58,040 nucleotides of DNA. Origin: a bacterium (GTDB taxonomy: Bacteria; Auribacterota; UBA6266). This document shows positions 2,290 through 46,561 of this stretch, in pieces; within the stretch, counting starts at the first letter, position 1; every line of letters begins with the position of its first letter. The DNA is taken from contig JAQUNG010000001.1 of assembly GCA_028717725.1 (NCBI GenBank), positions 1-58,040 on the forward strand, in the 5' to 3' direction. Both the position numbers and the translations under genes were made by a program. The notes under the pieces are model-generated. The model was given only the letters and a program-made list of their open reading frames with translations, was not told where the DNA came from and did no database searches.

Positions 2290-2428
2290 AAAAACCCTGC
2301 TATTCCAAAATGTTTTTCGACATGTATGTCATGCGCTTGTTTTTTTGCACTACTAAATTACTCTGGAATATATAACGCAAATCTGATAAAATTCACCTCT
2401 TCAATACAGTTAATTAAATAACATACTT

Positions 2429-3763: not shown

Positions 3764-3832
3764 CGCTCATGGCAGGAAACGGGAGTAATTAAAAAGTTTT
3801 TTGTTTTGAAGATTGGAATTTTGAATTTTTGT

Positions 3833-3852
3833 CTGCCAATAGGCAGGTTTTT
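3833..3852 (+). terminator. Weak hairpin plus T-tract after waaA (possible intrinsic terminator)
   Basis: CTGCC-AATA-GGCAG followed by GTTTTT. The stem is only 5 bp (up to 7 with wobbles). Confidence 0.2.
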
Positions 3853-3904
3853 AAGATTTTGTATTTAGGATTTCGGGTTTGGATTTAAAACAAAGGAGTT
3901 AAAT

Positions 3905-4810: not shown

Positions 4811-4822
4811 GGAATAAAAATC

Positions 4823-6557: not shown

Positions 6558-7730
6558 ATGGTAGCATTGCTGATAAAAATAAGGGAATCGATTGAAAAAT
6601 ACGCCATATCCGTAATAACGGGCGAACGTGATGATTTCAGCGCGAGATGTTTTCTCAAGGTGTTAAGTTTCTTATCGAGGATTTTCGGTTTTGTCGTACA
6701 GATAAGGCTTTTTCTTTACAGACACAGGATATTCAGGAGGAAAACACTTGGGTGTATGGCAATCAGCATAGGGAATCTGACTGTTGGAGGAACCGGTAAA
6801 ACTCCGATAGTCGAAATGTTTGCCAAGTCCCTGGAAGGCGAAGGCAGAAAAGTGGCAATTCTTTCGAGGGGGTACAGAAGCGCGAGCAAGTCTGTCATAG
6901 TGAGGTTTGCGGATTTTATTTTTAAGAATAAAATGAAATATGAGCCGAAAATCGTTTCGGACGGCAGAACTATCCTTCTGGACTCCATACACGCGGGCGA
7001 TGAGCCTTATATGCTGGCTAAAAATGTTAAAAACGCTATAGTCCTTGTGGACAAGAACAGAGTGAAAGCGGGGGCTTTCGCCATCGAAAGATACGGGGTG
7101 GACACTCTTCTGCTGGATGATGGGTTCCAATATCTTCCTCTGGACAGGCGATATGATGTTGTTTTAATCGATGCGACTTCGCCTTTCGGCAATGAAAAAA
7201 TGCTTCCGCGGGGCGAATTGAGGGAAACGGTGAATAACCTTAAAAGGGCGAATATCGTTTTTATCACTAAAGCGGGAGGGAAGGACATTTCGATTTTAAA
7301 AAGTAAGATAAAGACAATAAATCCCAAAGCGGAAATCATTATCTGTGTGCATAAACCTTTATATTTTGAGGAAGTTTACAGCGGCAACAAGAAAGACATA
7401 AGTTTTATTGACTTAAAAAAAATTTCCACGTTATCTGCGATTGCCAAACCCAGAGGTTTTGAGTTTGCCCTGGAAGAAATCGGCGCCCAGATTGTTTCTT
7501 CCCATAGGTTTATGGACCATCACAGGTTTACCCAGCAGGAAATAATAGATGTGATTAATGATGCTATTGGCAAGGACGCGGAAGCTATAGTCACCACCGA
7601 AAAAGATTCCGTAAGATTTCCCTATGTTTCGGGAATTGATATGCCCGTTTATTTTTTAAGGGTCAGAATTGAGATTATAGAAGGGGCAAAAGATTTTAAT
7701 GATTGCGTATCTCGCATATGTTTCAGCTAA
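6558..7730 (+). CDS. lpxK: Tetraacyldisaccharide 4'-kinase
   Basis: Diagnostic P-loop GNLTVGGTGKTP followed by ILSRGY. N-terminal hydrophobic anchor. GGAG SD. Confidence 0.9.
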   Translation: MVALLIKIRESIEKYAISVITGERDDFSARCFLKVLSFLSRIFGFVVQIRLFLYRHRIFRRKTLGCMAISIGNLTVGGTGKTPIVEMFAKSLEGEGRKVAILSRGYRSASKSVIVRFADFIFKNKMKYEPKIVSDGRTILLDSIHAGDEPYMLAKNVKNAIVLVDKNRVKAGAFAIERYGVDTLLLDDGFQYLPLDRRYDVVLIDATSPFGNEKMLPRGELRETVNNLKRANIVFITKAGGKDISILKSKIKTINPKAEIIICVHKPLYFEEVYSGNKKDISFIDLKKISTLSAIAKPRGFEFALEEIGAQIVSSHRFMDHHRFTQQEIIDVINDAIGKDAEAIVTTEKDSVRFPYVSGIDMPVYFLRVRIEIIEGAKDFNDCVSRICFS

Positions 7731-8433
7731 AGCAAGCCTTTTTATATTAGGGGTTCTTCCCGAATGGATATCTTACCGGATAGGAAGACTCTTAGGCATT
7801 GCGGCTTACATTCTGGATGCAAGGCACAGAAAGGTCGCAGTTGAGAATGTAAAGAAGTCTTTCCCCATGATGAAAAGCAGGGAAGTTAAAAGAATTGCGC
7901 GCTCTTCATTTATGCATTTTGGAATGGTAGTAATTGATTATGGGAAAGTATTTGTTAAAGGACCGTTGTGGTTTTTGAAAAGGTCTGAAATAAGAGGTTC
8001 CGAATCGGTTATCGATTATATGAGAAAAAAGGAAAGAGGCGCGATAATATTGCTTGCTCATTTCGGAGTGTGGGAAGTCCTGGGTTCCATGTGTATTGTT
8101 GAAAATGTTGATATAAGCGTTATAGCAAAACCTCTAAAAAACAAATTTCTTGACAGTCTGATAAAAAGAATAAGAGAAAAATTCCCTCAGAAAGTTATTG
8201 ATAAAATGGATGCTGTTTCTGGCATAAACAATATGTTAAAGAAAAATAAAATAGTTGGAATACTTGCCGATCAGAGAGCGGGAGGCAGGGGTGTTTTTGT
8301 CGATTTTTTTAACCGTGAAGCTTCTACAGTTGCCACCCCTGCGGTTTTTGCAGTAAAGACCAATACAGCTCTGTTCCCCATTTTTTGGTATAAGAACGGG
8401 GAACAGCAGATTTCGTTTATATGTGAAAAATAA
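7699..8433 (+). pseudogene. lpxL: Lipid A late (lauroyl/myristoyl-type) acyltransferase, LpxL/HtrB family: N-terminal 244-codon fragment
   Basis: AHFGVWE (H-x4-E) and LADQ motifs of the Lip_A_acyltrans family. The frame ends at TAA 8431-8433 inside an A-rich run, about 55 codons before the family's conserved C-terminus. Confidence 0.7.
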
Positions 8434-8611
8434 AATTGAAGCTTCGGAATTTAGCGGTACATTTGATGAAAAAATATTCGGCATTACGCAAAAATATTCG
8501 AATATAGTGGAAAAAGAGGTAAGAAAATATCCCGAGCAGTATTTCTGGATGCATAGGAGGTGGAAGTCAAAGCCGAGAAAAGGCGCACTTACAGATAAAG
8601 GGAGACTTTAA
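8423..8611 (+). pseudogene. lpxL: C-terminal fragment of the same LpxL-family acyltransferase, in the +1 frame
   Basis: Encodes KYPEQYFWMHRRWKSKP, the conserved LpxL C-terminal motif (PEQY.W.HRR.K). It is only reachable by a 1-nt shift in GAAAAATAAAA (8425-8435). Confidence 0.65.
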
Positions 8612-8820
8612 GAAAAATGGCTAAAGAGAAATTGTTCCGGCGAGGAGGATTCAAGTGGCTATATTTAGTTTTAAATCCAAAATACGAATATCAAAATCCG
8701 AAAATAAAAAACAATGATAAATATTTTTCTATTTTGGAAATCAGGCTTTCAAATTTGTTTGGTATCTCGTGTTTGTGCCGGCTGTTTTTACACTTTCGAT
8801 TATTAAGAGGTGAATAAGAT

Positions 8821-9849
8821 ATGGCAGATTCAAAAAGTAAGATTTTATTGAGGGCCGTAAACTGGATTGGGGATGCTGTTATGATGCTTCCATCGGTCAA
8901 AGCGATAAAGCAAATGTATGCCTCCGCCGAAATCGTTGTTTTGGGAAAAGGCAGCGTCAACGCGGTTCTTTCGCTTGGAAAGGTTGTTGACCGTTTTATC
9001 AAATATGATATACCGGCTGATGTTCTTGATCTAAAGGAAAGGGTCAAACTTTCAAAAGAAATAAGAGCTAACGGGTTTTCGAGGTGTTTTATTTTTCCCA
9101 ATTCGTTCGATTCCGCGCTGATACCTTATATGTCGGGGATTCCCGAAAGAATAGGCTTCGGCGTTTTCCCCAGGTCTATACTGCTGACAAAGTCCGTAAA
9201 GCTTCCGCCGGTCGGCATTCACCAGGCGCTGAAGTATTTTGAACTGGTTAAAGCGGACGGCTTCTCGGGAAATATGCCCGATTTCAGTATGGAAGTCGAC
9301 AATGCTTCTTTGGTGTGGGCGGATACGTTTCTCGGAATGAATTGCAGGGATCGCTCAGCCCCTTTGGTAGGAATAAGCCCCGGCGCGGAGTACGGTCCGG
9401 CAAAAAGATGGTTTCCCGATAGATTTGCGAGCCTTATTAACAGAATAAAAAATGTCTATAATGCGGAAGTTATACTTTTAGGAAGTAAAAATGACAAAGA
9501 TATTTGCGGGGCTGTAAAAAGGCAGGTTTCGGGGACGATAATCGATGCCTGCGGCAAAACTACTATTCCCCAGTTAGCCGCAGTTTTAAAAAAAGTTAAG
9601 CTGTTGATAACAAATGATACGGGGACCATGCATCTGGCTGCCGCGCTGAAGACGCCTGTTCTGGCGATATTCGGTTCGACTGATGAGAAAGCTACATCAC
9701 CCGTTAAAGGCGATATAATTGTGATAAAAAAAGAAACGGAATGCAGCCCGTGCCTGAACAGGATATGCCGCAGAAAAACTTACGAATGTTTTTCCAAAAT
9801 ATCCGTTGAGGAAGTCTTCGGCAGATTAAAAAAAATATTCGGCGCTTAA
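8821..9849 (+). CDS. waaF: ADP-heptose:LPS heptosyltransferase (GT9), type II-like
   Basis: N-terminal NWIGDAVMMLPS motif and C-terminal NDTGTMHLAAALKTPVLAIFGST motif. AAGAGGTGA SD 8 nt upstream. Confidence 0.7.
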   Translation: MADSKSKILLRAVNWIGDAVMMLPSVKAIKQMYASAEIVVLGKGSVNAVLSLGKVVDRFIKYDIPADVLDLKERVKLSKEIRANGFSRCFIFPNSFDSALIPYMSGIPERIGFGVFPRSILLTKSVKLPPVGIHQALKYFELVKADGFSGNMPDFSMEVDNASLVWADTFLGMNCRDRSAPLVGISPGAEYGPAKRWFPDRFASLINRIKNVYNAEVILLGSKNDKDICGAVKRQVSGTIIDACGKTTIPQLAAVLKKVKLLITNDTGTMHLAAALKTPVLAIFGSTDEKATSPVKGDIIVIKKETECSPCLNRICRRKTYECFSKISVEEVFGRLKKIFGA

Positions 9850-9865
9850 CCGGAAAATCAGGCCT

Positions 9866-11047
9866 ATGGATAAAATAAAAATATTGTTTGTCATAGAAAA
9901 TTTTACGCCCGATACCGGCGGCGGGGAGAATTTTGCCAGGATGCTTGCTGATACCCTTACTTCGATGGGTTGCGCCGTGGTTGTGATTTCAAAAAACTTT
10001 GATTCCACGAATCCTGCGATAAAGCATATAAAAGTGCCGAAATCGTGTTTTATGCGGCTGTTTGACAGGATGATATTTGCGTTTTATGTGCCTTGGATGA
10101 CCCGCAGGGAAAATTTCAATGTGATTTTTTCCTTTGGTAAAAGTTTTGGGATGGATATTTATCGTCCGGGCGGTGGTGTCCATTCCGCTTACAGAAAATA
10201 TAATATCCGCTCATATAATAATGTCGTGTTCAAATTTTTCCAGAGAGTTAAAGATTTGTTGTCTCCCGAACAGTGGTTTCTGACATGGCTTGAGAAAAAA
10301 CAATACAATTCAAAAAAGCTGAAAAAAGTCATTGCGGTGTCCAATATGGTTAAAAGGCATGTCAAGAGATGGTATAGGATTGAAGATTCCATGATAGAAG
10401 TGATTTATAACGGAGTTGATATCGGGAAATACCATCCTTCTAAGAAAGAGAATGCGGGCGCCGTTTTCCGCCGGGAACTGCATCTTTTAGATGAAGTCAT
10501 ATTGCTTTTTGTCGCCAACAATTTTAGGCTTAAGGGATTGAGGACCTTATTTGTGGCATTGTCAATGCTGGACGCTTCTTTACTTGAGCCGGTCAGACTT
10601 TTGGTCTCAGGCAAAGGCAAAGTGAAAAGATGGAAACAGATGGCTGACATGCTTGGAATCGGGGAAAATGTTATTTTTCTAGGTCAACAGGGTGATATGG
10701 GCCCTGTCTATGCCGCTTCCGATATTTTTATTTTACCTTCGTTTTATGACCCTTGCGCCAATGTATGCCTTGAAGCGATGGCATCATCGGTTCCGGTGAT
10801 AACAAGTTCGTCGAATGGATCCAGTGAAATTATGGAAAACGGGAAAGAAGGTTTTATAGTGAAAGATGCCGATGATTTTGTCTGCTTGTCGGAGAAAATA
10901 GAATTTTTGCTTAAAAATAAAAAATCCAGACTGGAAATGGCTGAAAACGCCAGAAAACTTGCCGAAAAATATTCGATAAATCTGCAGTCGGAAAAAATTA
11001 TCAGGGTTATCAGGGATATTGCGGCAAAAAACAGGGAACATTTATAA
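9866..11047 (+). CDS. Glycosyltransferase family 4
   Basis: GT-B layout and a C-terminal nucleotide-sugar motif (ILPSFYDPCANVCLEAMASSVPVITS). Confidence 0.8.
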   Translation: MDKIKILFVIENFTPDTGGGENFARMLADTLTSMGCAVVVISKNFDSTNPAIKHIKVPKSCFMRLFDRMIFAFYVPWMTRRENFNVIFSFGKSFGMDIYRPGGGVHSAYRKYNIRSYNNVVFKFFQRVKDLLSPEQWFLTWLEKKQYNSKKLKKVIAVSNMVKRHVKRWYRIEDSMIEVIYNGVDIGKYHPSKKENAGAVFRRELHLLDEVILLFVANNFRLKGLRTLFVALSMLDASLLEPVRLLVSGKGKVKRWKQMADMLGIGENVIFLGQQGDMGPVYAASDIFILPSFYDPCANVCLEAMASSVPVITSSSNGSSEIMENGKEGFIVKDADDFVCLSEKIEFLLKNKKSRLEMAENARKLAEKYSINLQSEKIIRVIRDIAAKNREHL

Positions 11048-12189
11048 TGAGGATTATTTATCCTGTCAACAAAAGGCTGGTTACCGGTCGGGCACACGAT
11101 ATTTTAATCATTAAGACTTGTTATGCTCTTGCGGAAGCCGGAATCGACGTAGTTTTGATAATAGGGAAAACTATGCCGGAAGAAAAAATCCTGTCTTATT
11201 ACGGTCTTAGGCCTCATAAAAATCTTAAAATAATACAATTGCCGGTGCTCAGAAAAAGAGGCAGGTTCGGATTTTCATGGCATTTTATTTTTAACAGGTT
11301 CTGTCTGAAGAAAATATCGGACATTCTGTCTGACGGAAAAAAAAGTTTGCTTTATATCTCCGAGTTAAAGACGGCGCTGTTTTTGTTAAAATATAAAAAG
11401 CGGCTCAAGATACCTTTTTTCTATGAAATACACGGCCTTTACGCGGTATATCCCGATGACAAAAATTATCCCCGCGCGGATTTAAAAGAAGGCGCCGTAT
11501 TCTCTCTTTCCGACAGGCTTATTGTGACAACCGGAAAACTCAGCGAAATTATAAAAGAAACATACCATGACGCGAAAAATATAGCGGTTGTGCCGCTGGC
11601 GGCGGATAAGCCATGTGTCGTTGGACATACGATGCAGGAAAATTTCAAAGTCTACTATGTGGGTCAGTTATATTATGAGCAGGGAATAGATTTGCTGATG
11701 GAAGCCGCCGGCAAGATCGAAGGCGCACAATTCCATGTTATAGGGGGAAAAGAGAATGAAGTCGCGTATTATAAAAATGCGGCTGCACAGAGGAATATTG
11801 CCGACAGGTTTTTCTTTCACGGGTTCATCAAGCCCTCAGAACTGGATAAGAAACTTAAGGAAGCCGATTGTTTTGTCATTCCCTCAAGAGAAAAAGGGAA
11901 AATGAATTATGTCGCGCACACAAAATCTTATGAATATCTCAGATACGGGAAGCCGATAATATCCTTCAGGCTGGATTCCGTCCTTGAGGTTTTGAGAGAC
12001 GGTTATAACTCGCTCCTTGCCGACAAGAATGATGCCGGCGCGCTTGCAGGCTGTATCAGGCGGCTTAAAAATGACGGCGAATTGCGCCGCAGGCTTTCGG
12101 ACGGCGCTTTAAAAACGCTGGAGGGATTTTCATGGGCCAAGAGAGCTGAAAAGTTAAAGCAAGTTTTCGCCGCCGGTATAAAATCATAG
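11047..12189 (+). CDS. Glycosyltransferase family 4
   Basis: GT-B layout with a 1-nt TAATG overlap with the upstream gene. The C-terminal half has a GT4-like pattern (FVIPSREKGKMNYVAHTKSYEYLRYGKPII). Confidence 0.7.
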   Translation: MRIIYPVNKRLVTGRAHDILIIKTCYALAEAGIDVVLIIGKTMPEEKILSYYGLRPHKNLKIIQLPVLRKRGRFGFSWHFIFNRFCLKKISDILSDGKKSLLYISELKTALFLLKYKKRLKIPFFYEIHGLYAVYPDDKNYPRADLKEGAVFSLSDRLIVTTGKLSEIIKETYHDAKNIAVVPLAADKPCVVGHTMQENFKVYYVGQLYYEQGIDLLMEAAGKIEGAQFHVIGGKENEVAYYKNAAAQRNIADRFFFHGFIKPSELDKKLKEADCFVIPSREKGKMNYVAHTKSYEYLRYGKPIISFRLDSVLEVLRDGYNSLLADKNDAGALAGCIRRLKNDGELRRRLSDGALKTLEGFSWAKRAEKLKQVFAAGIKS

Positions 12190-12209
12190 GATAGGAAAGG
12201 ATTCGCTGA

Positions 12210-13733
12210 ATGGATTTTAAATCAGGGCAGAAGTTTATAGGCTGGGATCTTGCAAGACTGGTCACCCTGTCTTTCCTTACGAGGCTGATTTTACGGTTAA
12301 CCTTTTTTGTGCCGGCAAAGGACGGGTTGACTTTTATCGAATTGGCGCAATGTTTTATCAAGGGAGATTTAAAAACCGCTTTGTCACATGAATACCATCC
12401 TCTTTACCCCTGGCTGATAAGCGTCTTTTCAAAATTTACAGCGGATTTTATCGATGCAGGACTGTTTATATCGCTGTTATTCGGGTTTTTGCTGGTTATC
12501 CCTGTTTATCTTTCCGCTTTAAGGCTTTTTGACAGGAAAGCCGCCGTTATCTCCTCAATTTTTTGTATTTTTCACCCGTACCTTCTCAGGTTTTCGTCGA
12601 ATGTGCTTTCTGAATCGGCATATCTTTTTTTTACGAGTTTTGCGTTCTGGTGCGGTATAGAGGGGGTAACAAAGAAAAAAACCGTCTATTTTGCCGCAGT
12701 GGCTTTATTTTCTGTGTTTGCATATCTGGCCAGGCCGGAAGGCATCGGTATTCTGCTGGCAGTTGTGTCCTCTCTTCTGATAGTACCTTTGCATGGATGG
12801 AGTTTTTTGAAGAGATTATGGCTTTCATTTTTTGTTGTCGCCGTTTTCCTTGTTGTGGTTTTCCCGTATATTTATGTCATAAGCGAGTTTCAGGGCGAAT
12901 GGCGTCTGACACAGAAAACCAGAGTTACATCGCTTTTTGGGCTGGATAGAACGGAAAAAAATACGGAAGTTGAACAATCGATTCCTGAAGTCGCAAAAGA
13001 ATATCCGCTGAAAGCCGCTCCGGAGAGGCCGAAAGGTGTAAAACTTGCGGTAAAAGGTTTTGAACAGTTGATAAGGAAAATTTTACAGGGCGTTTTCATC
13101 CCTGTTGTCGTGTTTGCGCTGATAGGCGTCACAATCAGGAAAAAATACCCGAGGTCTCAGCCGGAATTCATTCCTTTGCTGGTTTTTTTAATATATGTAT
13201 CGGTGCTTCTTATGGTTGCGATGCGCACGGATATTTCTTACCGCCATACTGCCTTTATGATGCTGCTCGGATGTGTTTACGCGGGCGCGGGAGTGACTGA
13301 ATTTACGTCTTTATTTCCGAAAAGAAACGCCAGTTTGCTTCTTTGGGCTATTTTATTTGTGTGCATAGTTTCTATGTCTGTTAAAGGTTTTCAGCCTGTG
13401 GGGATTGATAAGGCATCCAGAAGAACAGTTGGGATATGGATAAGCAGAAATTATCCCGGAGAGACGGTTATGACTTCACGGATGGCCAGAATTCCTTTTT
13501 ACGCCGGCGCGGAACATTTCGATTATACCGATTACAAAAAAGAATTTATACTGGAAGAAGCCCGCAGCAAAGGCGTTAGACTTGCGGTAATAAACCTGCT
13601 TGATATGTCCGAAGCCGATAAGGACCTCTTAAGCCTGCTTAACGATAAAAATTCCGAAAGAATATATTCAAATAAATTCACAGAAAAAGAAGAAATTGTT
13701 ATATACGAGCTTTTTTTAAATGGTGAAGATTGA
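12210..13733 (+). CDS. GT-C fold integral-membrane glycosyltransferase (ArnT/PMT_2, GT39/83-like)
   Basis: 507 aa with many TM segments followed by a soluble C-terminal domain. First-loop acidic motif (PAKDGLTFIELA) and ARPEG loop. Acceptor unknown. Confidence 0.65.
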   Translation: MDFKSGQKFIGWDLARLVTLSFLTRLILRLTFFVPAKDGLTFIELAQCFIKGDLKTALSHEYHPLYPWLISVFSKFTADFIDAGLFISLLFGFLLVIPVYLSALRLFDRKAAVISSIFCIFHPYLLRFSSNVLSESAYLFFTSFAFWCGIEGVTKKKTVYFAAVALFSVFAYLARPEGIGILLAVVSSLLIVPLHGWSFLKRLWLSFFVVAVFLVVVFPYIYVISEFQGEWRLTQKTRVTSLFGLDRTEKNTEVEQSIPEVAKEYPLKAAPERPKGVKLAVKGFEQLIRKILQGVFIPVVVFALIGVTIRKKYPRSQPEFIPLLVFLIYVSVLLMVAMRTDISYRHTAFMMLLGCVYAGAGVTEFTSLFPKRNASLLLWAILFVCIVSMSVKGFQPVGIDKASRRTVGIWISRNYPGETVMTSRMARIPFYAGAEHFDYTDYKKEFILEEARSKGVRLAVINLLDMSEADKDLLSLLNDKNSERIYSNKFTEKEEIVIYELFLNGED

Positions 13734-14616
13734 GATAAATCTGACTAAAAGGGACATCTGCCCGTACTGCGATTCGGGAAAATGGGAATCCCTGTTTATT
13801 CTGGATCGATGCGGTATATGTAAATGCGCGTTCTGCGGGGGAGTATTCAGCAATCCCTATCTGAGCGAGAAAGAAGCGAAGATAGTCTTTTCGGACCCGG
13901 ATGCCGTGGGCGTTATCAATCCGGAAGTGAAATGTTACTATGACAGGGATTTTGTCTTAGCCAATTCCCGGCATACTTTTAAGGTTTTTGACTGGCTGCT
14001 TGATTTCCTTGAGAAGAATACACAGGGGAGAAAACTTTTTGATGTGGGATTCGGGATGGGATTTTTACTGGAGAAAAGCCGTCGGAGAAAATGGGAGTGT
14101 AAAGGTATAGATTTTTCCGATGAGTATTATAACTACGCGAAAGAAACGCTGGGTCTTGATGTAGTAAAAGCGGAGCTTTCGGAATTCAGAGGGCGGGACG
14201 AAGAGTTTGATGTTATAGTTCTCTGGGATGTAATAGAGCATCTTGATAATCCCGGCGATTCGCTTGGCAGGCTTCGCGGTATGCTGAAAAACGGAGGGAT
14301 GCTGGCGATAGCGACCCCAAATGAGAAAAGCCTGATTGCTTTTATTGCGAAATTTATATACAGGGCGACATTCGGTCTGGTGAAAGGCCCGTTGAGTTCG
14401 ATATATGTGTTGGAACATCCCCTGTTCTTTGACAATAACTCGCTTCGAAAATTGCTTGAACGAAATGGTTTTAATATTGTATTGTCAAAGCAGGATGAAA
14501 CTGATCTTGAAAGACTGAATCTGGGGACCCTAAAAAAAATGATAGTAAAAACTATATTCTTCTTCGCGAGATTGTTTAAAATGAGCAACAGGATAATCAC
14601 AATCGCAAAAAAATGA
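13720..14616 (+). CDS. Class I SAM-dependent methyltransferase with N-terminal Cys4 zinc-ribbon
   Basis: CPYCDS...CKCAFCGG ribbon. SAM motif I LFDVGFGMGFLL. Post-I/II motifs (VIVLWDVIEHL). Confidence 0.8.
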   Translation: MVKIEINLTKRDICPYCDSGKWESLFILDRCGICKCAFCGGVFSNPYLSEKEAKIVFSDPDAVGVINPEVKCYYDRDFVLANSRHTFKVFDWLLDFLEKNTQGRKLFDVGFGMGFLLEKSRRRKWECKGIDFSDEYYNYAKETLGLDVVKAELSEFRGRDEEFDVIVLWDVIEHLDNPGDSLGRLRGMLKNGGMLAIATPNEKSLIAFIAKFIYRATFGLVKGPLSSIYVLEHPLFFDNNSLRKLLERNGFNIVLSKQDETDLERLNLGTLKKMIVKTIFFFARLFKMSNRIITIAKK

Positions 14617-16073
14617 AAAAGAGCCGTTATTATAATATTATACTGCTTATTATCTTGTTAGCGGGGATGTTCGCGAGAATAGGTCCTGTTAAGAAACCTT
14701 TACTGGGGAATTTTTCATCTTATCAGACTGCTACGGCAATGATGGCGCGTTTTATTGCGCGCGAAGGCTTTGCCGCGGTTGTTCAGCCGAAAACAAACAT
14801 CCTGATAAACGGGAAGCCCGCTATCCATATGCTTTATGTTCCGGGTGCCGCCGCCGCAGCGGGCTGCCTATGGGAAATTTTCGGGTTTTCACTTGATTTT
14901 TGGGGAAGATTCCAGGCATCTTTCTTTACGATGCTTTCTTCATTGCTTATCTATTTGATTGTTCGCAGGCATTTTGATGAGGCAACAGGTTTAATGAGCT
15001 GTTTTTTCTTCAATGTTTTCCCTCTTAGCTTTGTTTACGGCCAGAGTTTTATGAACGAAGCGTTTGCCTGTTGTCTTGCAATTTTTTCTTTTTGGTTATT
15101 ATCTAATTTCAAAATTAACACATATAATGTTATTGTTTCGGGCTTGGCGGCCTCGCTTGCGTTTTTGATGAGAGTCCATTTTTTATGCCTGTTTCCGGCT
15201 TTGCTTTTTCTAATATGGCAGAACACACCGAGGAATAAAATTTTGCATTCGGTTATTTTAATCATTTGTGTGGCTATCCCTCTGTCCGGCTGGTACTTGC
15301 ATACTTATAATGTCGCTTCCGCGGCGGATAATAATATTACAAGTATTTTCGCGCAGGAAAAGAAGCATTATGCTTCTTTTCCTCACCCGCTTCTTGTTCA
15401 GATGGCGTTTTATAAAGATGCTATTGATAAACTCGCCGGAATATGCCTGAATCCAATAGGTTTTACGCTGACGTTTGCGGGAGTTCTGCTGTCCATGACA
15501 GGAAAGAAAAAATGTGGGGCTCTTGTGTTATGGCTTCTAGGTTCATTGAGTGTTATAGTCTTGCTTCCCCAAAAAGTATATGACCATAATTTTTATCTTT
15601 ATCCCGTGCTTTTCCCTTCTTCGGTTTTTGCTTCGCTTATTTTTCTTGAGATTATGAAGCCGGTCGGACGGGCATATATGGTTTTATTTTTGTGTGTGTT
15701 TGTTCTGGTTTCCGCGAGATATTTTGCAAATCCGGTTTTTAAATATCCCTCTGAGCTTTCAGCCGTGCCTGAAGCCGGTGATTTTGTCCGGGGAAACACC
15801 CCGTCTGATAGCAAGGTTATCGTATCGCCCTGCACTTATGACCAGCTGTATTATTGCGATAGAAACGGATGGGTCTTTGATCCGGCCGGCGCGGATATAG
15901 CTAAATTTAAAAGTTATATAAGCGGCGGAGCGGCTTACTATGTTACGGCGGATATGGAGAATTTACGCAAAGCCGGCGAGTTCTACAGATATCTTAGCGG
16001 AAACTATAAGAATATTTCCCCAAGCGGGGATTATGTGGTTTTTGCGCTTGACGAAAAGAGGGGAAAACGGTGA
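14613..16073 (+). CDS. Polytopic membrane protein, GT-C-like glycosyltransferase
   Basis: 486 aa with at least 9 hydrophobic segments and a soluble C-terminal tail. ATGA overlap with the methyltransferase. The family call is by architecture only. Confidence 0.5.
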   Translation: MKKSRYYNIILLIILLAGMFARIGPVKKPLLGNFSSYQTATAMMARFIAREGFAAVVQPKTNILINGKPAIHMLYVPGAAAAAGCLWEIFGFSLDFWGRFQASFFTMLSSLLIYLIVRRHFDEATGLMSCFFFNVFPLSFVYGQSFMNEAFACCLAIFSFWLLSNFKINTYNVIVSGLAASLAFLMRVHFLCLFPALLFLIWQNTPRNKILHSVILIICVAIPLSGWYLHTYNVASAADNNITSIFAQEKKHYASFPHPLLVQMAFYKDAIDKLAGICLNPIGFTLTFAGVLLSMTGKKKCGALVLWLLGSLSVIVLLPQKVYDHNFYLYPVLFPSSVFASLIFLEIMKPVGRAYMVLFLCVFVLVSARYFANPVFKYPSELSAVPEAGDFVRGNTPSDSKVIVSPCTYDQLYYCDRNGWVFDPAGADIAKFKSYISGGAAYYVTADMENLRKAGEFYRYLSGNYKNISPSGDYVVFALDEKRGKR

Positions 16074-16777
16074 ATAAGCGCCTTGTTATTATACCCACCT
16101 ATAACGAAAGAAAAAATATAGTCAGGTTGTGCGAAAAAATCATATCGATGGAAGAAGGTTTCGATATCCTGGTCGTTGACGACAATTCACCGGATGGCAC
16201 CGGAGAGCTGGCTGAGAAAATGTCTTCAATGCATCCTGAAATCCATGTGATTAGAAGGTCGGGAAAGATGGGCATAGGGAGTGCTTATATAGAAGGCTTT
16301 AAGTGGGGGTTGGGAAAAGAATATGAGCTGTTTTTTGAAATGGACGCGGATTTCTCTCACAACCCCGAAGATTTGCTCCGGATAACGGGAACGATAAGGG
16401 ATTGTGACTTATGTGTGGGTTCAAGATATATAGAAGGGGGCGGGGTAATAAACTGGCCGCTCTGGAGGATGTTGCTTAGCAAATTTGCAGCCAGGTATTA
16501 TACCAGGATAATAACCGGTATGCCCTTGCACGACGCCACTTCAGGATTCAAATGCTTCAGAAGGACAGTGCTTGAGAATATTGATTTTAACCAGATTCAC
16601 TCTGAAGGATATTCTTTTCAGATCGAAATGCATTACCGCATTTGGAAAAAAGGTTTTCAGATAAAGGAAATCCCCATTATTTTTACAGATAGGCAGCACG
16701 GCCTGTCGAAAATGTCTAAAAAAATTATTTTTGAAGCAATAATTATTGTCTGGAAAATAAAGTTTAGCGTTAAATGA
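16070..16777 (+). CDS. GT2 polyprenol-phosphate sugar synthase (Dpm1/Ppm1-type)
   Basis: VIIPTYNERKNI, VVDDNSPDGT and MDADFSH motifs. GTGA overlap upstream. Sugar specificity not determinable. Confidence 0.8.
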   Translation: MNKRLVIIPTYNERKNIVRLCEKIISMEEGFDILVVDDNSPDGTGELAEKMSSMHPEIHVIRRSGKMGIGSAYIEGFKWGLGKEYELFFEMDADFSHNPEDLLRITGTIRDCDLCVGSRYIEGGGVINWPLWRMLLSKFAARYYTRIITGMPLHDATSGFKCFRRTVLENIDFNQIHSEGYSFQIEMHYRIWKKGFQIKEIPIIFTDRQHGLSKMSKKIIFEAIIIVWKIKFSVK

Positions 16778-18282
16778 AAATCAAAAAAGTATTTCTTCTT
16801 TTTCCTCCATGCCCGATTCCTAAGATGTTTCCCAAAAGGGTCCAGATGCCCCTGGGGATAGCATATCTGGCGTCTTCCATAAAGACTACGGGCGTAGATG
16901 TAAAAGTTCTCGACAGCCTTATTGATGGATGGAATCAGGTTGAAGAAATAGATAAAAAGAATATCCGTTTCGGATTGTCATGCCGGCAGATAGTTGACAA
17001 TATCCTGGAATATGGTCCCGATTTGATAGGCATGTCATGTATGTTCAGTGTCCAGTCTAAAATTGTTTCCGAGATCGCCGCGGAAATAAAAAAGCAGCTT
17101 CCAAAAGTAAAAATTGTTTTGGGTGGAGCCCATCCGTCAGCAATGCCTGAAGATTCAATTGCGGATAAGAATATTGATTATGCTCTTGTAGGGGAGTCTG
17201 AAGCCACATTCATAGAATTAATCCATCTGTTAAATCAGGATAAGTCCGTTGCGGATATGGATGGCATCTGTTATCGTGACGAAAGGGGGTTTTCTCGCAT
17301 TAATCCCAAGAAAAAATATATAGAAAATCTAGATGCTTTGCCTTTACCTGCCTGGGACCTTCTTCCGGTGGAAAAATATTTTAAGTTGAATAGACCCCAT
17401 GGGACGGTGACAAGGGGCAACCGAATTATTCCTGTTATTACTTCCCGCGGCTGCCCCGCAAAATGCGTTTTCTGTTCGATACATCCGATTTGGGGAAGAA
17501 TTTATAGGGCTCGCACTCCGGCAAATGTCGTGGGAGAAATAGAGATGCTCATTAATAAATATGGCGTTCAGGAGATACAGATTGAAGATGATAATATGAC
17601 CCTTGACAGGAAGAGGGCTGAGGATATATGCGACCTTATTATTGAAAAAGATATAAAAGTTTCTTTTACAGCGCCTAACGGACTTGCCGTCTGGGCTCTT
17701 GACAAGAATCTTCTTATCAAGCTGAAAAAAGCCGGGTTTTACCGTTTAACGCTTGCCGTTGAGTCGGGCAGTCAGAATACATTGACGCATATTATTCATA
17801 AACCGCTGAAAATAGATAAAGTGCTTGAAGTTATAAAAGACGCAAATGAGATCGGGTTTGATATAGATGTATTTTTTGTTGTGGGTTTTCCCGGGGAAAC
17901 TCTTTCAGAAATGCAGAAAACGTTCGATCTCGGCAAAAGTCTGGACGTTTCCAGTGTTAAATATTTCATTGCGACGCCTTATCCCGGAACAGAACTTCTG
18001 GAAATTGCCAGGGAGAAAAATATGCTTCCTGCGGATTTTGACCCGAAAGACCTCGGCATAAATGCCGTAAAAGGCAATATAACGACAGAATATTTTACGC
18101 CGGAAACGCTCGAAAAGAAGGTGTCCGCCGAGACTTTCAAAACTCAGATTACCCTGTTTAAAAGACATCCTGTCAGATATGTTACGGGTATTTTCAGGAA
18201 TTACCTGCTAAAGGACAGCGGAGCAACAATTGCGTTTCTCTGGCAGTCCTTGAAGAATTGCCTCTCTAAACGTAAGATTTAG
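16774..18282 (+). CDS. B12-binding-domain radical SAM enzyme (class B)
   Basis: N-terminal cobalamin-binding-like Rossmann segment. Radical SAM cluster motif SRGCPAKCVFCS. ATGA overlap upstream. Confidence 0.8.
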   Translation: MKIKKVFLLFPPCPIPKMFPKRVQMPLGIAYLASSIKTTGVDVKVLDSLIDGWNQVEEIDKKNIRFGLSCRQIVDNILEYGPDLIGMSCMFSVQSKIVSEIAAEIKKQLPKVKIVLGGAHPSAMPEDSIADKNIDYALVGESEATFIELIHLLNQDKSVADMDGICYRDERGFSRINPKKKYIENLDALPLPAWDLLPVEKYFKLNRPHGTVTRGNRIIPVITSRGCPAKCVFCSIHPIWGRIYRARTPANVVGEIEMLINKYGVQEIQIEDDNMTLDRKRAEDICDLIIEKDIKVSFTAPNGLAVWALDKNLLIKLKKAGFYRLTLAVESGSQNTLTHIIHKPLKIDKVLEVIKDANEIGFDIDVFFVVGFPGETLSEMQKTFDLGKSLDVSSVKYFIATPYPGTELLEIAREKNMLPADFDPKDLGINAVKGNITTEYFTPETLEKKVSAETFKTQITLFKRHPVRYVTGIFRNYLLKDSGATIAFLWQSLKNCLSKRKI

Positions 18283-18313
18283 CTTGACTGTTTGACATCT
18301 AAAGACTACAATA

Positions 18314-18425
18314 GATAACTAATGATAACTAATGATAACTAATGATAACTAATGATAACTAATGATAACTAATGATAACTAATGATAACTAATGATAACT
18401 AATGATAACTAATGATAACTAATGA
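18314..18425. repeat. Perfect tandem repeat, 11 copies of the 10-bp unit GATAACTAAT plus GA
   Basis: Read directly from the sequence: units start at 18314, 18324 ... 18414 with no mismatches. Stops in all six frames. Confidence 0.98.
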
Positions 18426-18451
18426 ATATTAAAAGTCAGGCGTTTTAAATT

Positions 18452-18733
18452 ATGGAAATTAAAGAGAATGAAGTTTATACAACTGAAGAAGCCCAGAAAC
18501 TGCTGAAAATAAGCTCCAGCACAATGATGCGAATGATTAAGAAGGGACTTATCAGGACCGGGCGTGCGGGGAAACAGTACAGGATATTGGGCAAAGAGAT
18601 TTTAAGGACTGTTTCGCCGAAGCTTGAAGACCGGGTGGGCAAGCTTTATAACAAGGGGAGACAATGGGTTCATGAAGGTATAGGTGAAAACAACGATAAA
18701 TTAAAAAAAGGGGATGATAATGTTAAATCATGA
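18452..18733 (+). CDS. Helix-turn-helix DNA-binding protein, excisionase-family/MerR-like HTH
   Basis: YTTEEAQKLLKISSSTMMRMIKKGLIRTGRAGKQYRI fits the excisionase-family HTH pattern. 93 aa. The 3' end overlaps the pseB start by 20 nt. Confidence 0.65.
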   Translation: MEIKENEVYTTEEAQKLLKISSSTMMRMIKKGLIRTGRAGKQYRILGKEILRTVSPKLEDRVGKLYNKGRQWVHEGIGENNDKLKKGDDNVKS

Positions 18734-19700
18734 TTTGTTTAGCGGCAAAACTGTTCTGATAACAGGTGGAACAGGCTCTTTCGGAAGGAAATTTACGGAA
18801 ATAGTGATTAAAAAACATAACCCTAAAAAACTTATCATATTCAGCCGCGACGAGATGAAGCAATATGAGATGCACCAGGAATTTAATCAGAAGAACATAA
18901 GGTATTTCATCGGTGATGTGCGCGACCCAGACAGGCTTCATAGGGCTTTCCATGGGGTTGATGTCGTAGTTCACGCCGCCGCGCTTAAAATTGTGCCGTC
19001 GGCCGAGTATAATCCGTTTGAAGCCGTTAAGACAAATGTTATAGGCGCGGAGAACGTGATAAACACAGCGATAGATAATGGCGTGAAAAAAGTAATAGCA
19101 TTAAGCACGGATAAAGCGGCAAACCCGGTGAACCTTTACGGCGCGACTAAACTTTGTTCGGAAAAAATGTTTATTGCGGCCAATAATTATTCGCCGGAAG
19201 GGACAAAATTCAGTGTAGTAAGGTACGGGAACGTTTTCGGTTCGCGAGGGAGCATAGTGCCGTTTTTTAAAGAATGCAGGAAAACGGGCGTAATTCCCAT
19301 AACAGATAAAAGGATGACTCGTTTCTGGATAACCCTGAGCCAGGGAGTGGAATTTGTAATAAGCTGTGTCAGTTCTATGAGGGGCGGGGAAGTGTTTATA
19401 CCTAAAATGCCCAGCATGAAAATAACCGATCTGGCAAAAGTTATAGCTCCTGAATGCAAATTAAAAATAGTAGGCATTAGGCCTGGCGAGAAACTTCATG
19501 AAACACTTGTTCCCGCGGATGATGCTTTTTCCACGGTGGAAAAAGAGGACAGGTTTATTACATGTCCCACTATTGTCTTTAATAAAAAGAGCAAACATGT
19601 TGGAGTCTGCCTCAAAGATGATTTTTCCGGGTATCGAAGTGACAATAATACGAGATGGCTTACGGTGAGTGAACTTAAAAAAATGGCGGATACGGAGTAA
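18714..19700 (+). CDS. pseB: UDP-N-acetylglucosamine 4,6-dehydratase (inverting)
   Basis: TVLITGGTGSFG, FSRDEMKQ, FIGDVRD, YGATK, RMTRFWIT and GIRPGEKLHE motifs. Near-collinear with Helicobacter FlaA1/PseB as recalled. Confidence 0.92.
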   Translation: MIMLNHDLFSGKTVLITGGTGSFGRKFTEIVIKKHNPKKLIIFSRDEMKQYEMHQEFNQKNIRYFIGDVRDPDRLHRAFHGVDVVVHAAALKIVPSAEYNPFEAVKTNVIGAENVINTAIDNGVKKVIALSTDKAANPVNLYGATKLCSEKMFIAANNYSPEGTKFSVVRYGNVFGSRGSIVPFFKECRKTGVIPITDKRMTRFWITLSQGVEFVISCVSSMRGGEVFIPKMPSMKITDLAKVIAPECKLKIVGIRPGEKLHETLVPADDAFSTVEKEDRFITCPTIVFNKKSKHVGVCLKDDFSGYRSDNNTRWLTVSELKKMADTE

Positions 19701-44606: not shown

Positions 44607-44710
44607 TTTAATGGTTAAGCAGTTCAGTGGTTAGAAGAAATAGAATCGGTAATCGAAACTATTGGACTTCTGAACTATTCAACCGCTGAACCGAATGAAT
44701 GGAGAAATAA

Positions 44711-45433: not shown

Positions 45434-45614
45434 ATATACCAGTTTAAGCCTGGTATGTTACCAGCGAAAATTCGGCAAAAGTCAGATAAAATAAAAAACC
45501 GTCAATTAATTTAATGTTTTTGTCGACTGTATATGCCGCTATTTTTCATATAAACTTTTATTTTTTTATGCTGTTAATTTGACGACATGCCCGGAAATAA
45601 GGCATTTTTGAGAT

Positions 45615-46205: not shown

Positions 46206-46221
46206 TCAAGGAGGTCGAATT

Positions 46222-46323: not shown

Positions 46324-46561
46324 TCGGTCTTTTGCGTTTTGCCGGCGGGGACATTACGATAAACTGATTTCTAAAGTTGCGATACGACGCATCGGTGTTT
46401 CTCGGAATCCGGCAATGGGTCGGGAGTTAAGCTGTATCTGTAGATATATCAATAAGATGCGGAAATGCGCCGCTGAGGGGTGAGGTATGTCCCTTTTTAC
46501 TTTCCTCCCGAAGCCCTGCGTCCGGTCTATCCTTATATACTTCCTTTTAAACTTATCGCTG

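Follow-up and report, generated by a model that had tools for sequence, protein, structure and literature searches.

The five genes at positions 12210-18282 on the forward strand of the 58,040-nucleotide stretch of bacterial DNA analysed here (the window) appear to form a lipid-carrier-dependent periplasmic glycosylation unit of the three-component type that is combined with two cytoplasmic tailoring enzymes, a reading in which we place moderate confidence. Judged by homology of sequence and structure, the enzyme classes of the gene products are established, as are the coupling of the genes and the conserved association of the radical SAM (rSAM) family with small GT2 and GT-C genes. The GT2 plus GT-C logic of three-component systems that had originally been predicted for this module is supported: its membrane proteins are GT-C enzymes, and the linkage of the rSAM gene is conserved.

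Gene organization and enzyme classes

The module comprises five overlapping reading frames, each at the position anticipated by the original prediction. GT-C1 (12210-13733; 507 amino acids) is a PMT_2-family (ArnT/PMT-like) polytopic glycosyltransferase with a C-terminal soluble alpha/beta domain. It is followed by a class I SAM-dependent methyltransferase (13720-14616; 298 amino acids) with an N-terminal Cys-rich (zinc-ribbon-like) extension, a second PMT_2-family GT-C glycosyltransferase (GT-C2; 14613-16073; 486 amino acids), a small soluble GT2 protein (16070-16777; 235 amino acids) that is a candidate polyprenyl-phosphate-hexose synthase of the Dpm1/Ppm1-type, and a class B radical SAM enzyme with a B12-binding domain (16774-18282; 502 amino acids) from an uncharacterised subfamily. 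Consecutive genes overlap by 14, 4, 4 and 4 nucleotides, and the start codon of the rSAM gene overlaps the GT2 stop codon (ATGA). These overlaps, the coordinates and the Pfam matches bear out the claim of five overlapping or coupled genes. We regard all five as real genes because their order is kept in two genomes of the same genus (73-89% amino acid identity) as well as in a sister genus (53-71%). Within the module, transmembrane (TM) segments are confined to GT-C1 and GT-C2, and none of the genes is a sugar-nucleotide gene that would point to the sugar.

A terminator-like site was not found on the forward strand within positions 8300-18800. A promoter-like element occurs only directly 3' of the rSAM stop codon, on the forward strand (TTGACT-17-TACAAT; 18284-18312), and matches the consensus at 10 of 12 positions, a match that by itself is no proof of function. 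It is kept in three congeners, including one devoid of the rSAM gene, and delimits the module on its 3' side; a 10-bp tandem array and an HTH/pseudaminic-acid (Pse) operon follow.

Both predicted GT-C enzymes were confirmed. GT-C1 and GT-C2 score 44.7 and 49.3 bits, respectively, against Pfam PMT_2 (cut-off 26.1), and at least seven TM segments are predicted for GT-C1. When their AlphaFold models (GT-C1: pLDDT 81, pTM 0.80; GT-C2: pLDDT 86, pTM 0.85) were compared with the PDB by Foldseek, the only matches were to GT-C structures: STT3, AglB, ArnT (5ezm/5f15), ALG12/9, PglB, DPY19 and Pmt4 for GT-C1, and STT3, ArnT, AglB, PglB, ALG9 and AftA/AftD for GT-C2. ArnT is the best size-matched structure for each (TM-scores of 0.57-0.65; for GT-C2, 0.64-0.65 normalised to the query and 0.58-0.59 to the target), while the alignments with Pmt1/2/4 extend over only about 260 residues. 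Neither GT-C protein contains a MIR or TPR acceptor-binding domain. The PMT_2 scores and the exclusive GT-C matches speak against an identity of these proteins as Wzy/WaaL-type enzymes or as transporters.

In many GT-C enzymes, the catalytic Asp resides in the stretch right after TM1. GT-C1 possesses an aspartate after TM1 (D38) that is invariant in 12 homologues, along with the R175-P-E-G motif. The corresponding stretch of GT-C2 lacks an acidic residue, so that D95, part of the D95-x-W-G-R motif that is invariant in 15 homologues together with E149, is the sole candidate. The two GT-C proteins share 26% identity over 72 amino acids (BLASTP) and no significant similarity beyond this segment.

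GT2 matches Pfam Glycos_transf_2 (94 bits), and its closest solved relative is the dolichyl-P-mannose synthase (DPMS) of P. furiosus (5mlz; 138 bits, E 3.6e-39). The alignment covers only the catalytic domain (25-245) and preserves the DAD motif; with no TM segment predicted for GT2, its assignment to the Dpm1/Ppm1 type holds. The top NCBIfam matches (AglJ, PpgS, Dol-P-hexose transferase and ArnC) all fall far below their cut-offs, and no equivalog was found. Of 79 genomes from the phylum, 49 carry an orthologue (50-57% identity).

The methyltransferase, likewise without predicted TM segments, matches Methyltransf_23 (64 bits) and also Methyltransf_11/25/12/31 of Pfam; no NCBIfam equivalog was detected, with UbiG scoring best (52 bits; cut-off 103). 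Cysteines C14, C17, C34, C36 and C39 and the SAM motif LDVGFGMG are invariant in five orthologues, which makes the proposed zinc ribbon plausible.

The class B assignment of the rSAM enzyme rests on matches to PF02310 (B12-binding; 76 bits) and PF04055 (Radical_SAM; 85 bits), and 25 homologues all retain its C227-x3-C231-x2-C234 motif. The best NCBIfam match, near full length, is NF038361, the Sden_1168-family P-methyltransferase (276 bits; cut-off 575), followed by HpnJ (169 bits); BchE (157 bits), the PhpK family (89 bits), HpnP/R and ladderane models are also among the matches. Among solved structures, none comes closer than AprD4 (63 bits) and MgmA/QCMT (9ccb; 58 bits).

Linkage of the radical SAM family to GT2 and GT-C genes

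The predicted linkage was examined through co-occurrence and proved to be conserved among the nearest relatives, within the same genome, and at distant loci, both bacterial and archaeal-looking. Among independent rSAM relatives, the three nearest (49-52% identity) each have a DPMS-like GT2 gene directly upstream, which in one locus (L021) encodes a protein 64% identical to the GT2 of the module, and large polytopic or PMT_2 proteins are encoded beside each of them. Linkage to GT2/GT-C genes is seen at five further places of the genome under study. Five of its six family rSAM genes have a GT-C gene no more than 3 kb away, against 3.6% of genes overall (binomial p ~3e-7), and five of six are found within 1.2 kb of a small GT2 gene, four of them directly abutting it. 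Across 162 loci of rSAM relatives with 30-52% identity, the density of GT-C genes peaks at position -1 (8%, versus 1-2% at positions ±3 to 5); across positions ±5 to 8 the enrichment amounts to no more than roughly two- to threefold because the local background within glycan clusters is high. Sampled membrane proteins adjoining rSAM relatives were PMT_2, TMEM260-like, STT3/AglB and AftD-like GT-C proteins. Independent lineages also show GT2 and rSAM genes side by side with overlapping start and stop codons; a set of rSAM, GT2, methyltransferase and PMT_2 genes recurs on an archaeal-looking contig, and STT3/AglB is linked to rSAM relatives at archaeal-looking loci. An rSAM enzyme of this kind turns up beside lipid-linked-sugar machinery in many uncultured bacteria and archaea.

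Fusion proteins of the Rosetta-stone type were also recovered: a GT2-GtrA-methyltransferase protein encoded next to an rSAM gene, an rSAM-methyltransferase protein, and an NTP_transferase-rSAM protein whose cluster also contains a 242-amino-acid GT2, a Methyltransf_23 and a PMT_2 protein. The last of these fusions favours a nucleotide sugar over a lipid-linked one as rSAM substrate. Next-tier rSAM relatives have GT4, GT4-methyltransferase fusion and Wzy-like genes as neighbours, and those at 42-46% identity reside in Wzy_C/GT4 O-antigen-like clusters; the family therefore belongs to glycan clusters generally and is not strictly tied to GT2/GT-C genes. In one same-genus genome (G002), the rSAM gene is cleanly deleted while the other four genes of the module, including those for both GT-Cs and the methyltransferase, are retained, and we conclude from this loss that the rSAM enzyme is an optional tailoring step.

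Proposed pathway, acceptor and competing readings

In the scheme that we infer, with regard to its sugar, order of steps, rSAM reaction, flippase and acceptor, GT2 would load polyprenyl phosphate with a hexose taken from a nucleotide sugar, on the membrane's inner face. The rSAM enzyme, translationally coupled to GT2, and the methyltransferase would modify the donor sugar in the cytoplasm, either as nucleotide sugar or, as we favour, as polyprenyl-P-sugar. Precedents for such tailoring are ArnD/NaxD and the HpnI (GT2)/HpnJ (B12-rSAM) pair, the latter of which operates on a lipid-bound sugar. Another comes from three-component systems in which polyprenyl-P-sugars are acted on by auxiliary enzymes; in the PPPRS/MATE/GT136 system reported in 2024 an auxiliary epimerase diversifies the lipid-linked sugar (PMC11127046). 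The likeliest chemistry would be C-methylation by the rSAM enzyme and O- or N-methylation by the methyltransferase; the prior for C-methylation stems from the presence of C-methyltransferases in every characterised group of B12-rSAM enzymes (PMC12931638). HpnJ is classed there under 'other/unknown transformation'.

As had been predicted, no GtrA-like flippase is encoded in the module, whose overlapping genes leave no room for a small reading frame, and GtrA is absent from the entire 96%-complete genome. The lipid-linked sugar would be flipped by a non-GtrA protein. A candidate is the MprF-type flippase-like TM protein encoded outside the module on the forward strand (43656-44606; PF03706, 137 bits; TIGR00374, 60.7 bits, cut-off 43.2); the genome has just one other gene of this kind, and the family also adjoins an rSAM fusion at another locus (L181). 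The two dissimilar ArnT-like GT-Cs may then attach the sugar to two different sites at the periplasmic face, most probably in the lipid A or inner core of LPS.

Gene neighbourhood makes lipid A/core the likeliest acceptor. With the module ends a run of genes that takes in waaA (2429-3763), lpxK (6558-7730), lpxL (7699-8433), a waaF-like heptosyltransferase II gene (8821-9849, forward strand; TIGR02195, 211 bits, cut-off 134.6) and two forward-strand genes with GT4 Pfam matches (9866-11047 and 11047-12189), the last of which is separated from GT-C1 by only 20 nucleotides. In other families of the phylum, GT2 orthologues are usually encoded directly upstream of LptF/LptG. These two observations weigh against protein as the acceptor, a reading we consider unlikely. 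On that view, polyprenyl-P-mannose or a comparable donor made by GT2 would serve the two PMT_2 enzymes in O-glycosylating proteins of the periplasm, outer membrane or cell surface, in the manner of actinobacterial Ppm1/Pmt or the S. mutans PgfS/PgfM1/PgfM2 system. PMT_2 and TMEM260-like relatives elsewhere do glycosylate proteins, and proteins beside rSAM homologues match TMEM260-like protein O-mannosyltransferase models; a Dol-P-Man synthase is closest to GT2, PgfS is among its NCBIfam matches, the Pgf system also pairs one GT2 with two GT-Cs, and the archaeal-looking loci tie the rSAM to STT3/AglB. Yet ArnT rather than Pmt is the best size-matched structure, and MIR or TPR domains are missing. 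Somewhat less likely still is a Gtr-style side-chain glycosylation after polymerisation of an O-antigen or capsule, perhaps the glycan with pseudaminic acid that is encoded next to the module on its downstream side. That region does contain a large Pse and polysaccharide cluster, which includes a Wzx-like flippase, the 42-46% rSAM relatives sit in O-antigen-like clusters, and O-antigens are targets of Gtr and GT136 systems (PMC11127046), but the conserved promoter-like element and tandem array intervene before the Pse operon, the module is contiguous with the core genes, and the GT2-lptF/G adjacency elsewhere is independent of O-antigen clusters.

We also doubt, a little more strongly, that the rSAM and/or methyltransferase merely share the operon and tailor nascent lipid A-core at the cytoplasmic face, another lipid or a small molecule instead of the GT2/GT-C donor. 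B12-rSAM enzymes often act on lipids (HpnP/R, BchE and ladderane models are among the matches), the rSAM gene was lost from G002 while its four partners stayed, and GT4 genes also neighbour the family. Against this stand the recurrence of the overlapping GT2-rSAM pair in independent lineages, the same association at archaeal-looking loci, where LPS is not expected, and the fusions of rSAM to methyltransferase and sugar nucleotidyltransferase. That the rSAM enzyme is a Sden_1168-type P-methyltransferase whose substrate is a phosphonate or phosphinate group decorating the glycan is very improbable: although NF038361 is its best NCBIfam match, the score is less than half of the cut-off, that for the PhpK family is low, and PEP mutase is absent from the 96%-complete genome.

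Relation to known systems

The LPS-directed donor pathway that we favour recalls Arn (ArnC GT2, ArnD, ArnE/F and the GT83 enzyme ArnT), Francisella FlmF/NaxD/FlmK and Bordetella LgmA/B/C. As proposed for the module, a GT2 in these systems charges undecaprenyl phosphate with a sugar, which an auxiliary enzyme alters on the cytoplasmic side while it is lipid-linked; a GT-C of the PMT_2/ArnT fold then delivers this sugar to lipid A on the periplasmic side, and the genes are found among LPS genes. However, GT2 of the module reaches just 39 bits with the ArnC model, against a cut-off of 529, and is devoid of the TM helices of ArnC; ArnA/B/D and ArnE/F are missing, two GT-Cs are present, and the auxiliaries are a B12-rSAM enzyme and a SAM methyltransferase instead of a deformylase/deacetylase. 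In Rhizobium, the GT2 RgtE is a dodecaprenyl-P-GalA synthase that serves the GT-Cs RgtA/B/C/D, and here too one polyprenyl-P-sugar synthase feeds several GT-Cs that address different LPS core/lipid A positions; there is no sequence-level equivalence, and Rgt has neither rSAM nor methyltransferase.

In the hopanoid HpnI/HpnK/HpnJ pathway, a membrane lipid receives a sugar from a GT2, after which the lipid-bound sugar is remodelled by a radical SAM enzyme of class B. The HpnJ score of the module rSAM is, however, far under the cut-off (578), no hopanoid genes are present, and in the module the lipid would be a polyprenyl-phosphate carrier from which GT-Cs pass the sugar on. GT2 spans the catalytic domain of P. 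furiosus DPMS and, like human DPM1 and the catalytic (D2) domain of M. tuberculosis Ppm1, has no membrane anchor of its own, but it scores below every NCBIfam equivalog cut-off, that of PpgS included. The same three-component logic underlies Gtr (GtrA/GtrB/GtrC), CsbB/GtcA/YfhO and PPPRS/MATE/GT136 with its epimerase (PMC11127046); the module differs in having no GtrA, GtcA or MATE flippase, a TM-less GT2 that is not of the GtrB type, and another kind of tailoring enzymes. Finally, the S. mutans Pgf locus combines the GT2 PgfS, the GT-Cs PgfM1 and PgfM2 and the tailoring epimerase PgfE, but it glycosylates adhesins in a Gram-positive bacterium, whereas the module is found in an LPS context and its GT2 scores only 35 bits on the PgfS model.

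The five genes and their predicted products

The five consecutive plus-strand genes of the original prediction were recovered at 12210-13733 (GT-C1), 13720-14616 (methyltransferase), 14613-16073 (GT-C2), 16070-16777 (GT2), and 16774-18282 (rSAM), with overlaps between neighbors of 14, 4, 4, and 4 nt, respectively. TM segments are predicted only in GT-C1 and GT-C2. The same set, with gene order and flanks unchanged, is present in two genomes of the same genus (73-89% amino acid identity) and likewise in a sister genus (53-71% amino acid identity); the five genes are real and conserved. The lineage is indicated by the names that homologues carry ('Candidatus Aureabacteria', now Ca. Auribacterota, PVC group). 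The source genome is a 1.75-Mb, 96%-complete MAG, and functions throughout were assigned from homology and gene neighborhood.

The proposed Dpm1/Ppm1-type nature of the GT2 agrees with its closest solved relative, the dolichyl-phosphate-mannose synthase of P. furiosus (5mlz; 138 bits, E 3.6e-39). The match extends over the catalytic domain of the archaeal enzyme (residues 25-245 of 374) and retains its metal-binding DAD motif but does not include its TM domain; ArnC is a distant second (35 bits). The 235-aa protein belongs to Pfam Glycos_transf_2 and exceeds no NCBIfam equivalog cut-off, its best matches being AglJ (60 bits against a cut-off of 325), PpgS (54 against 370), a Dol-P-hexose transferase, and ArnC (39 against 529). 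We therefore regard it as a predicted polyprenyl-phosphate sugar synthase of the Dpm1/Ppm1 type that is devoid of its own membrane anchor. GT2 orthologues (50-57% identity) occur in 49 of the 79 genomes of the phylum.

HMM searches, which had been suggested as the means of assigning the two GT-C genes, placed both products above the Pfam PMT_2 cut-off of 26.1 (44.7 and 49.3 bits). Neither has an NCBIfam match or a sequence match in the PDB, and the two are barely alike in sequence. Since the PDB sequence search was empty, we resorted to AlphaFold2 models, built with 12 and 15 homologues (GT-C1, pLDDT 81 and pTM 0.80; GT-C2, pLDDT 86 and pTM 0.85), and to Foldseek searches of the PDB. Both models retrieved STT3, AglB, ArnT, PglB, ALG9/12, DPY19, Pmt4, and AftA/AftD; all matches with E <0.05 were GT-C enzymes or the related GPI-transamidase subunit, and transporters appeared only at a probability of 0.30 or below. 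ArnT (5ezm/5f15) was the best size-matched structural match for GT-C1 (TMq 0.57-0.60, TMt 0.55-0.57) as well as for GT-C2 (TMq 0.64-0.65, TMt 0.58-0.59). Because STT3 scores equally well, this placement holds at the level of the fold and not of the family: the models assign GT-C1 and GT-C2 to the ArnT-like GT-C(A) fold, which is characterized by 13 TM helices and a small domain in the periplasm. The alternative reading of the two membrane proteins as Wzy/WaaL-type polymerases or ligases, or as transporters, is ruled out by the Pfam and fold searches, in which no Wzy_C match was found and GT-C folds were recovered. ArnT/GT83 enzymes are expected to carry an acidic catalytic residue in the first periplasmic loop. 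GT-C1 possesses an invariant D38 just past TM1, where the catalytic base of a GT-C would be expected; GT-C2 has no acidic residue at this position, and its invariant D95-x-WGR motif and invariant E149 are candidates.

The methyltransferase (298 aa) matches class I methyltransferase Pfam families and has an ordinary SAM motif; its N-terminal extension contains five Cys residues (Cys14, 17, 34, 36, and 39) that are invariant in five orthologues.

The fifth gene product was confirmed as a class B radical SAM protein (PF02310, 76 bits; PF04055, 85 bits), comprising an N-terminal B12-binding Rossmann domain and a radical SAM core whose C227-x3-C231-x2-C234 motif is invariant in 25 homologues. It falls into no curated NCBIfam subfamily (bits against cut-off: Sden_1168, 276/575; HpnJ, 169/578; BchE, 157/481; PhpK, 89/600). 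By sequence, the nearest solved structures are AprD4 (63 bits) and the MCR glutamine methyltransferase (about 60 bits); AprD4 exemplifies those proteins of this sequence space that lack cobalamin binding (PMC12931638). Cobalamin binding and methyl transfer by the rSAM are predictions from sequence. Each functionally characterized group of B12-radical SAM enzymes includes C-methyltransferases (PMC12931638), and for this reason C-methylation is the reaction to be expected of the rSAM by default; a rearrangement as in HpnJ, or a reaction of the AprD4 type that needs no cobalamin, is conceivable instead.

Two other roles can be weighed against this expectation. Action as a P-methyltransferase would fit the best NCBIfam match, Sden_1168, but this score lies below threshold and such a role is unlikely given that PEP mutase is absent from the 96%-complete genome. 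A RiPP-type role is also judged unlikely: there is no precursor-like ORF, the neighbors are all glycan enzymes, and the gene overlaps that of the GT2. A radical SAM protein of the SPASM/twitch type is encoded at 137-1153, where the LPS region begins, and partly overlaps the next GT4 ORF; it is a third radical SAM protein in a glycan context, and its best matches (PTO1314, NirJ, and mycofactocin maturase) are all sub-threshold.

Operon context and predicted acceptor

The window forms a single long glycan region with co-directional genes. The module is preceded in it by waaA (2429-3763), lpxK, an lpxL-type acyltransferase gene, the gene for a heptosyltransferase II (TIGR02195, with 211 bits above its cut-off), and a pair of GT4 genes, the second of which is followed by GT-C1 after 20 nt. 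No plus-strand terminator-like site is present within the run (8300-18800). Directly 3' of the rSAM stop codon lies a promoter-like element (TTGACT-17-TACAAT) that is kept in congeners; beyond it come a 10-bp tandem array and an HTH/pseudaminic-acid operon. Because the run is contiguous and the promoter-like element occurs only after the rSAM, we group the module, on its sequence context, with the lipid A/core genes and not with the Pse genes. In several families of the phylum, a GT2 orthologue (50-57% identity; loci L191-L207) is located directly upstream of the LptF/LptG LPS-export permease. The core-operon context and this adjacency to LptF/LptG make LPS lipid A or the inner core the most likely acceptor by guilt by association, as in the Arn and Rgt systems.

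The same adjacency to LptF/LptG was noted at L216 (6011-9401) and L217 (920-2814); at L216, a B12-rSAM gene precedes the GT2 and a weak PMT_2 protein follows. The tandem array at 18314-18425 consists of 11 perfect copies of GATAACTAAT in this genome only: the corresponding site in congeners (L013, 13880-14260; L014, 8010-8380; L214, 8080-8124) has just about 2-3 degenerate copies, and the sister genus (L015) has no array. The lpxL-type ORF at 7699-8433 encodes 244 aa, compared with 309-313 aa at the orthologous positions of G003 and G004 (L013, 3403-4344; L015, 154-1083), a difference that a frameshift or assembly error at the 3' end of the ORF could account for.

One congener, G002, has no rSAM gene. 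Its locus (L214, on contig G002:C54) retains the two GT4 genes, GT-C1, the methyltransferase, GT-C2, and GT2 at 70-89% identity, the latter four intact, while homology to the window ends at 16803, 30 nt into the rSAM, and restarts at 18277, five nt before its stop. Between these remnants of the first 30 and last 5 nt of the gene, about 98 nt of unrelated filler (within L214 8080-8272) replace about 1.47 kb of the window (16804-18276). The rSAM was evidently once present in G002 and was later lost. The comparison suggests that it serves an optional tailoring step, with the GT-Cs and the methyltransferase independent of it, and this natural deletion in a congener offers a ready comparison.

Association of the radical SAM gene with GT2 and GT-C genes

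Linkage of the rSAM to GT2 and GT-C genes, on which the original prediction depended, is conserved among its nearest relatives, within the same genome, and among distant relatives. The nearest independent relatives (49-52% identity) reside on three unrelated contigs, a small sample that an additional locus (L022) was too short to extend. At L017, GT2 genes lie upstream of the rSAM and a PMT_2 gene downstream, followed by HTH and PseB genes; at L018/L019, a DUF2079 polytopic protein and a GT2-GtrA-methyltransferase fusion precede the rSAM; and L021 carries genes for a sugar nucleotidyltransferase, an epimerase, an 8-TM protein of 503 aa, a GT2 that is 64% identical to that of the window, the rSAM, and a methyltransferase. 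No BLASTP similarity was detected between GT-C2 and the 503-aa membrane protein at the equivalent position of L021; the GT-C partners are not orthologous between lineages, even where the GT2 (64%) and the rSAM (50%) are. A metagenome scan for closer rSAM relatives yielded nothing above 45% identity. The L018 fusion (7373-9178), positioned between the DUF2079 gene and a 49%-identical rSAM gene, is a single 601-aa protein that combines a GT2 catalytic domain, a GtrA/DPMS TM domain, and a class I methyltransferase.

A second B12-rSAM gene of the window (46632-48026) overlaps with its 3' end the start of a YfhO-type GT-C gene; a small GT2 gene and an MprF-type flippase-like gene come before it, and a PMT_2 GT-C gene follows the YfhO-type gene. 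Elsewhere in the genome, the gene orders are rSAM-GT-C-GT-C on contig C43, rSAM-GT2-rSAM-GT-C on C91, and GT2-rSAM-GT2 on C36. Using a home-made HMM seeded on PMT_2-like proteins for GT-C detection in these neighborhood counts, we found five of the six rSAM genes within 3 kb of one of 13 GT-C genes, a position that is shared by 3.6% of all genes (binomial p about 3e-7). The surrounding 43656-52347 module as a whole encodes the flippase-like protein, the GT2, a secreted 196-aa protein, the B12-rSAM, YfhO, PMT_2, and a CDP-alcohol phosphatidyltransferase, and a further lipid-linked-sugar module at 38455-41790 consists of GT2, PMT_2, and GT2 genes. Across contigs C1, C8, C25, C39, C43, C65, C88, and C91, the 1.75-Mb genome has 12 PMT_2-like GT-C genes and one YfhO gene; about nine small GT2s were counted in it.

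Our survey of distant relatives covered 162 non-redundant loci with rSAM proteins of 30-52% identity from many bacterial and archaeal lineages. Within two genes of the rSAM, we found a PMT_2-like GT-C at 26 loci, a GT2 at 30, a related methyltransferase at 22, a GT4 at 26, and another B12-rSAM at 45; GT-C density peaked at 8% at the -1 position and was 1-2% at a distance of three to five genes. Ten directly adjacent membrane proteins were sampled: three are PMT_2 and/or TMEM260-like above cut-off, one is just above the PMT_2 cut-off and TMEM260-like, and the others are a polytopic TPR protein, a weak PTPS_related match, a Wzx-type flippase, an MFS transporter, and two proteins without Pfam match, one of which has 206 aa and no TM segments. 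STT3/AglB and AftD-like GT-Cs are also found near rSAM relatives. On an archaeal-looking contig (L181, 4782-15766; L182, 622-10934; with STT3, PTH2, and TruD), an NTP_transferase-B12-rSAM fusion has STT3 and a flippase-like gene as neighbors; after the fusion come genes for a GHMP kinase, an SDR, a Gfo/Idh/MocA protein, an SIS isomerase, a HAD phosphatase, and a transaldolase, resembling an NDP-heptose pathway, and then by those for a 242-aa GT2, an epimerase, a Methyltransf_23 protein, and PMT_2. One further contig carries an rSAM-methyltransferase fusion, and among rSAM ORFs of 620-930 aa, Pfam detected no GT domain; these have an extra rSAM core, a FemAB/GNAT domain, or unassigned N-termini. 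Next-tier relatives (42-46% identity) follow GT4 or GT4-methyltransferase genes in Wzy-type clusters. The rSAM family is broadly glycan-associated, with an enrichment above the local cluster background that is modest.

Relation to known systems and a proposed route

Three-component glycosylation, in which a lipid-phosphate-sugar synthase, a flippase, and a GT-C cooperate, decorates LPS, teichoic acids, and proteins and drives antigenic variation and polymyxin resistance. The logic of such systems (Gtr, Arn, CsbB/YfhO), invoked in the original prediction, is reflected by homology in the GT2 and its co-encoded GT-Cs; the module shares with them the polyprenyl-phosphate-sugar synthase and the GT-C but differs in the lack of a dedicated flippase in the locus. 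As predicted, no GtrA-like flippase is part of the module, since there is neither a further TM protein nor room for one within 12210-18282, and GtrA (PF04138) is absent from the entire 96%-complete MAG. The locus encodes no dedicated small flippase (GtrA/GtcA, ArnE/F, or MATE); the only candidates lie elsewhere in the genome, and these are its two MprF-type flippase-like genes (C1:43656-44606 and C115:1309-2109). Rgt and Pgf have the same layout as the module, one GT2 with several GT-Cs. The GT-Cs share the ArnT/GT83 fold, but sequence membership and the Arn partner set (an ArnC equivalog, ArnA/B/D) are lacking, and sequence cut-offs together with the missing flippase rule out assignment to any specific family. 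An auxiliary enzyme has a precedent in the PPPRS/MATE/GT136 three-component system, which carries an epimerase (PMC11127046).

Homology and gene anatomy give an LPS-core operon in which a class B rSAM is translationally coupled to a DPMS-type GT2 that has no TM segment, and which also encodes two GT-Cs of the ArnT fold and a soluble SAM methyltransferase. From this arrangement we infer the loading, tailoring, flipping, and transfer of a sugar. The GT2 would synthesize a polyprenyl-P-hexose, which the rSAM and the methyltransferase would modify before flipping and in the cytoplasm, where both would have to act, being soluble and SAM- and reductant-dependent. A non-GtrA flippase, for which an MprF-type flippase-like protein is the candidate, would then move the donor across the membrane, and GT-C1 and GT-C2 would place the sugar at two lipid A/core sites; transfer from a lipid carrier to an extracytoplasmic acceptor is in any case predicted from the enzyme set. 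As to the substrate of the rSAM, its coupling to the GT2 and the GT2-GtrA-methyltransferase fusion point to a lipid-linked sugar, and the NTP_transferase-rSAM fusion points to a nucleotide-sugar.

What is new, as far as we found, are the two SAM-dependent tailoring enzymes, especially the class B radical SAM, and how widely its association extends: it recurs six times in the source genome, in distant bacteria, and on archaeal-looking contigs, sometimes as fusions. In the full-text literature, we encountered no relevant description of a B12-rSAM combined with polyprenyl phosphate, O-antigen, or GT-C genes, nor any relevant account for Sden_1168 or for Omnitrophota with an rSAM. A 2026 review on B12-radical SAM enzymes, according to which their largest sequence groups are still unexplored, contains no mention of polysaccharide, LPS, glycan, sugar, or polyprenyl substrates (PMC12931638). 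We tentatively propose, while considering it less likely than not, that the polyprenyl-phosphate-sugar/GT-C systems of many uncultured bacteria and archaea include this large and uncharacterized B12-rSAM clade as a fourth component. Its members might C-methylate a monosaccharide that is linked to lipid or nucleotide, or rearrange it by HpnJ-like radical chemistry, and so yield donor sugars beyond ordinary sugar-nucleotide chemistry that GT-Cs place on LPS, S-layer, and other envelope acceptors. Modification of the carried sugar by the rSAM would provide a function for a big unexplored group of these enzymes and would predict unusual, e.g., C-methylated, envelope sugars in PVC-group and DPANN-type organisms.

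A separate observation concerns the L216 locus (860-6017), where a RACo-type reductive activator of corrinoid proteins (Fer2 and RACo domains) is encoded two genes upstream of the B12-rSAM that precedes the GT2 and LptF/LptG genes; this protein may be a dedicated cobalamin reactivation partner.
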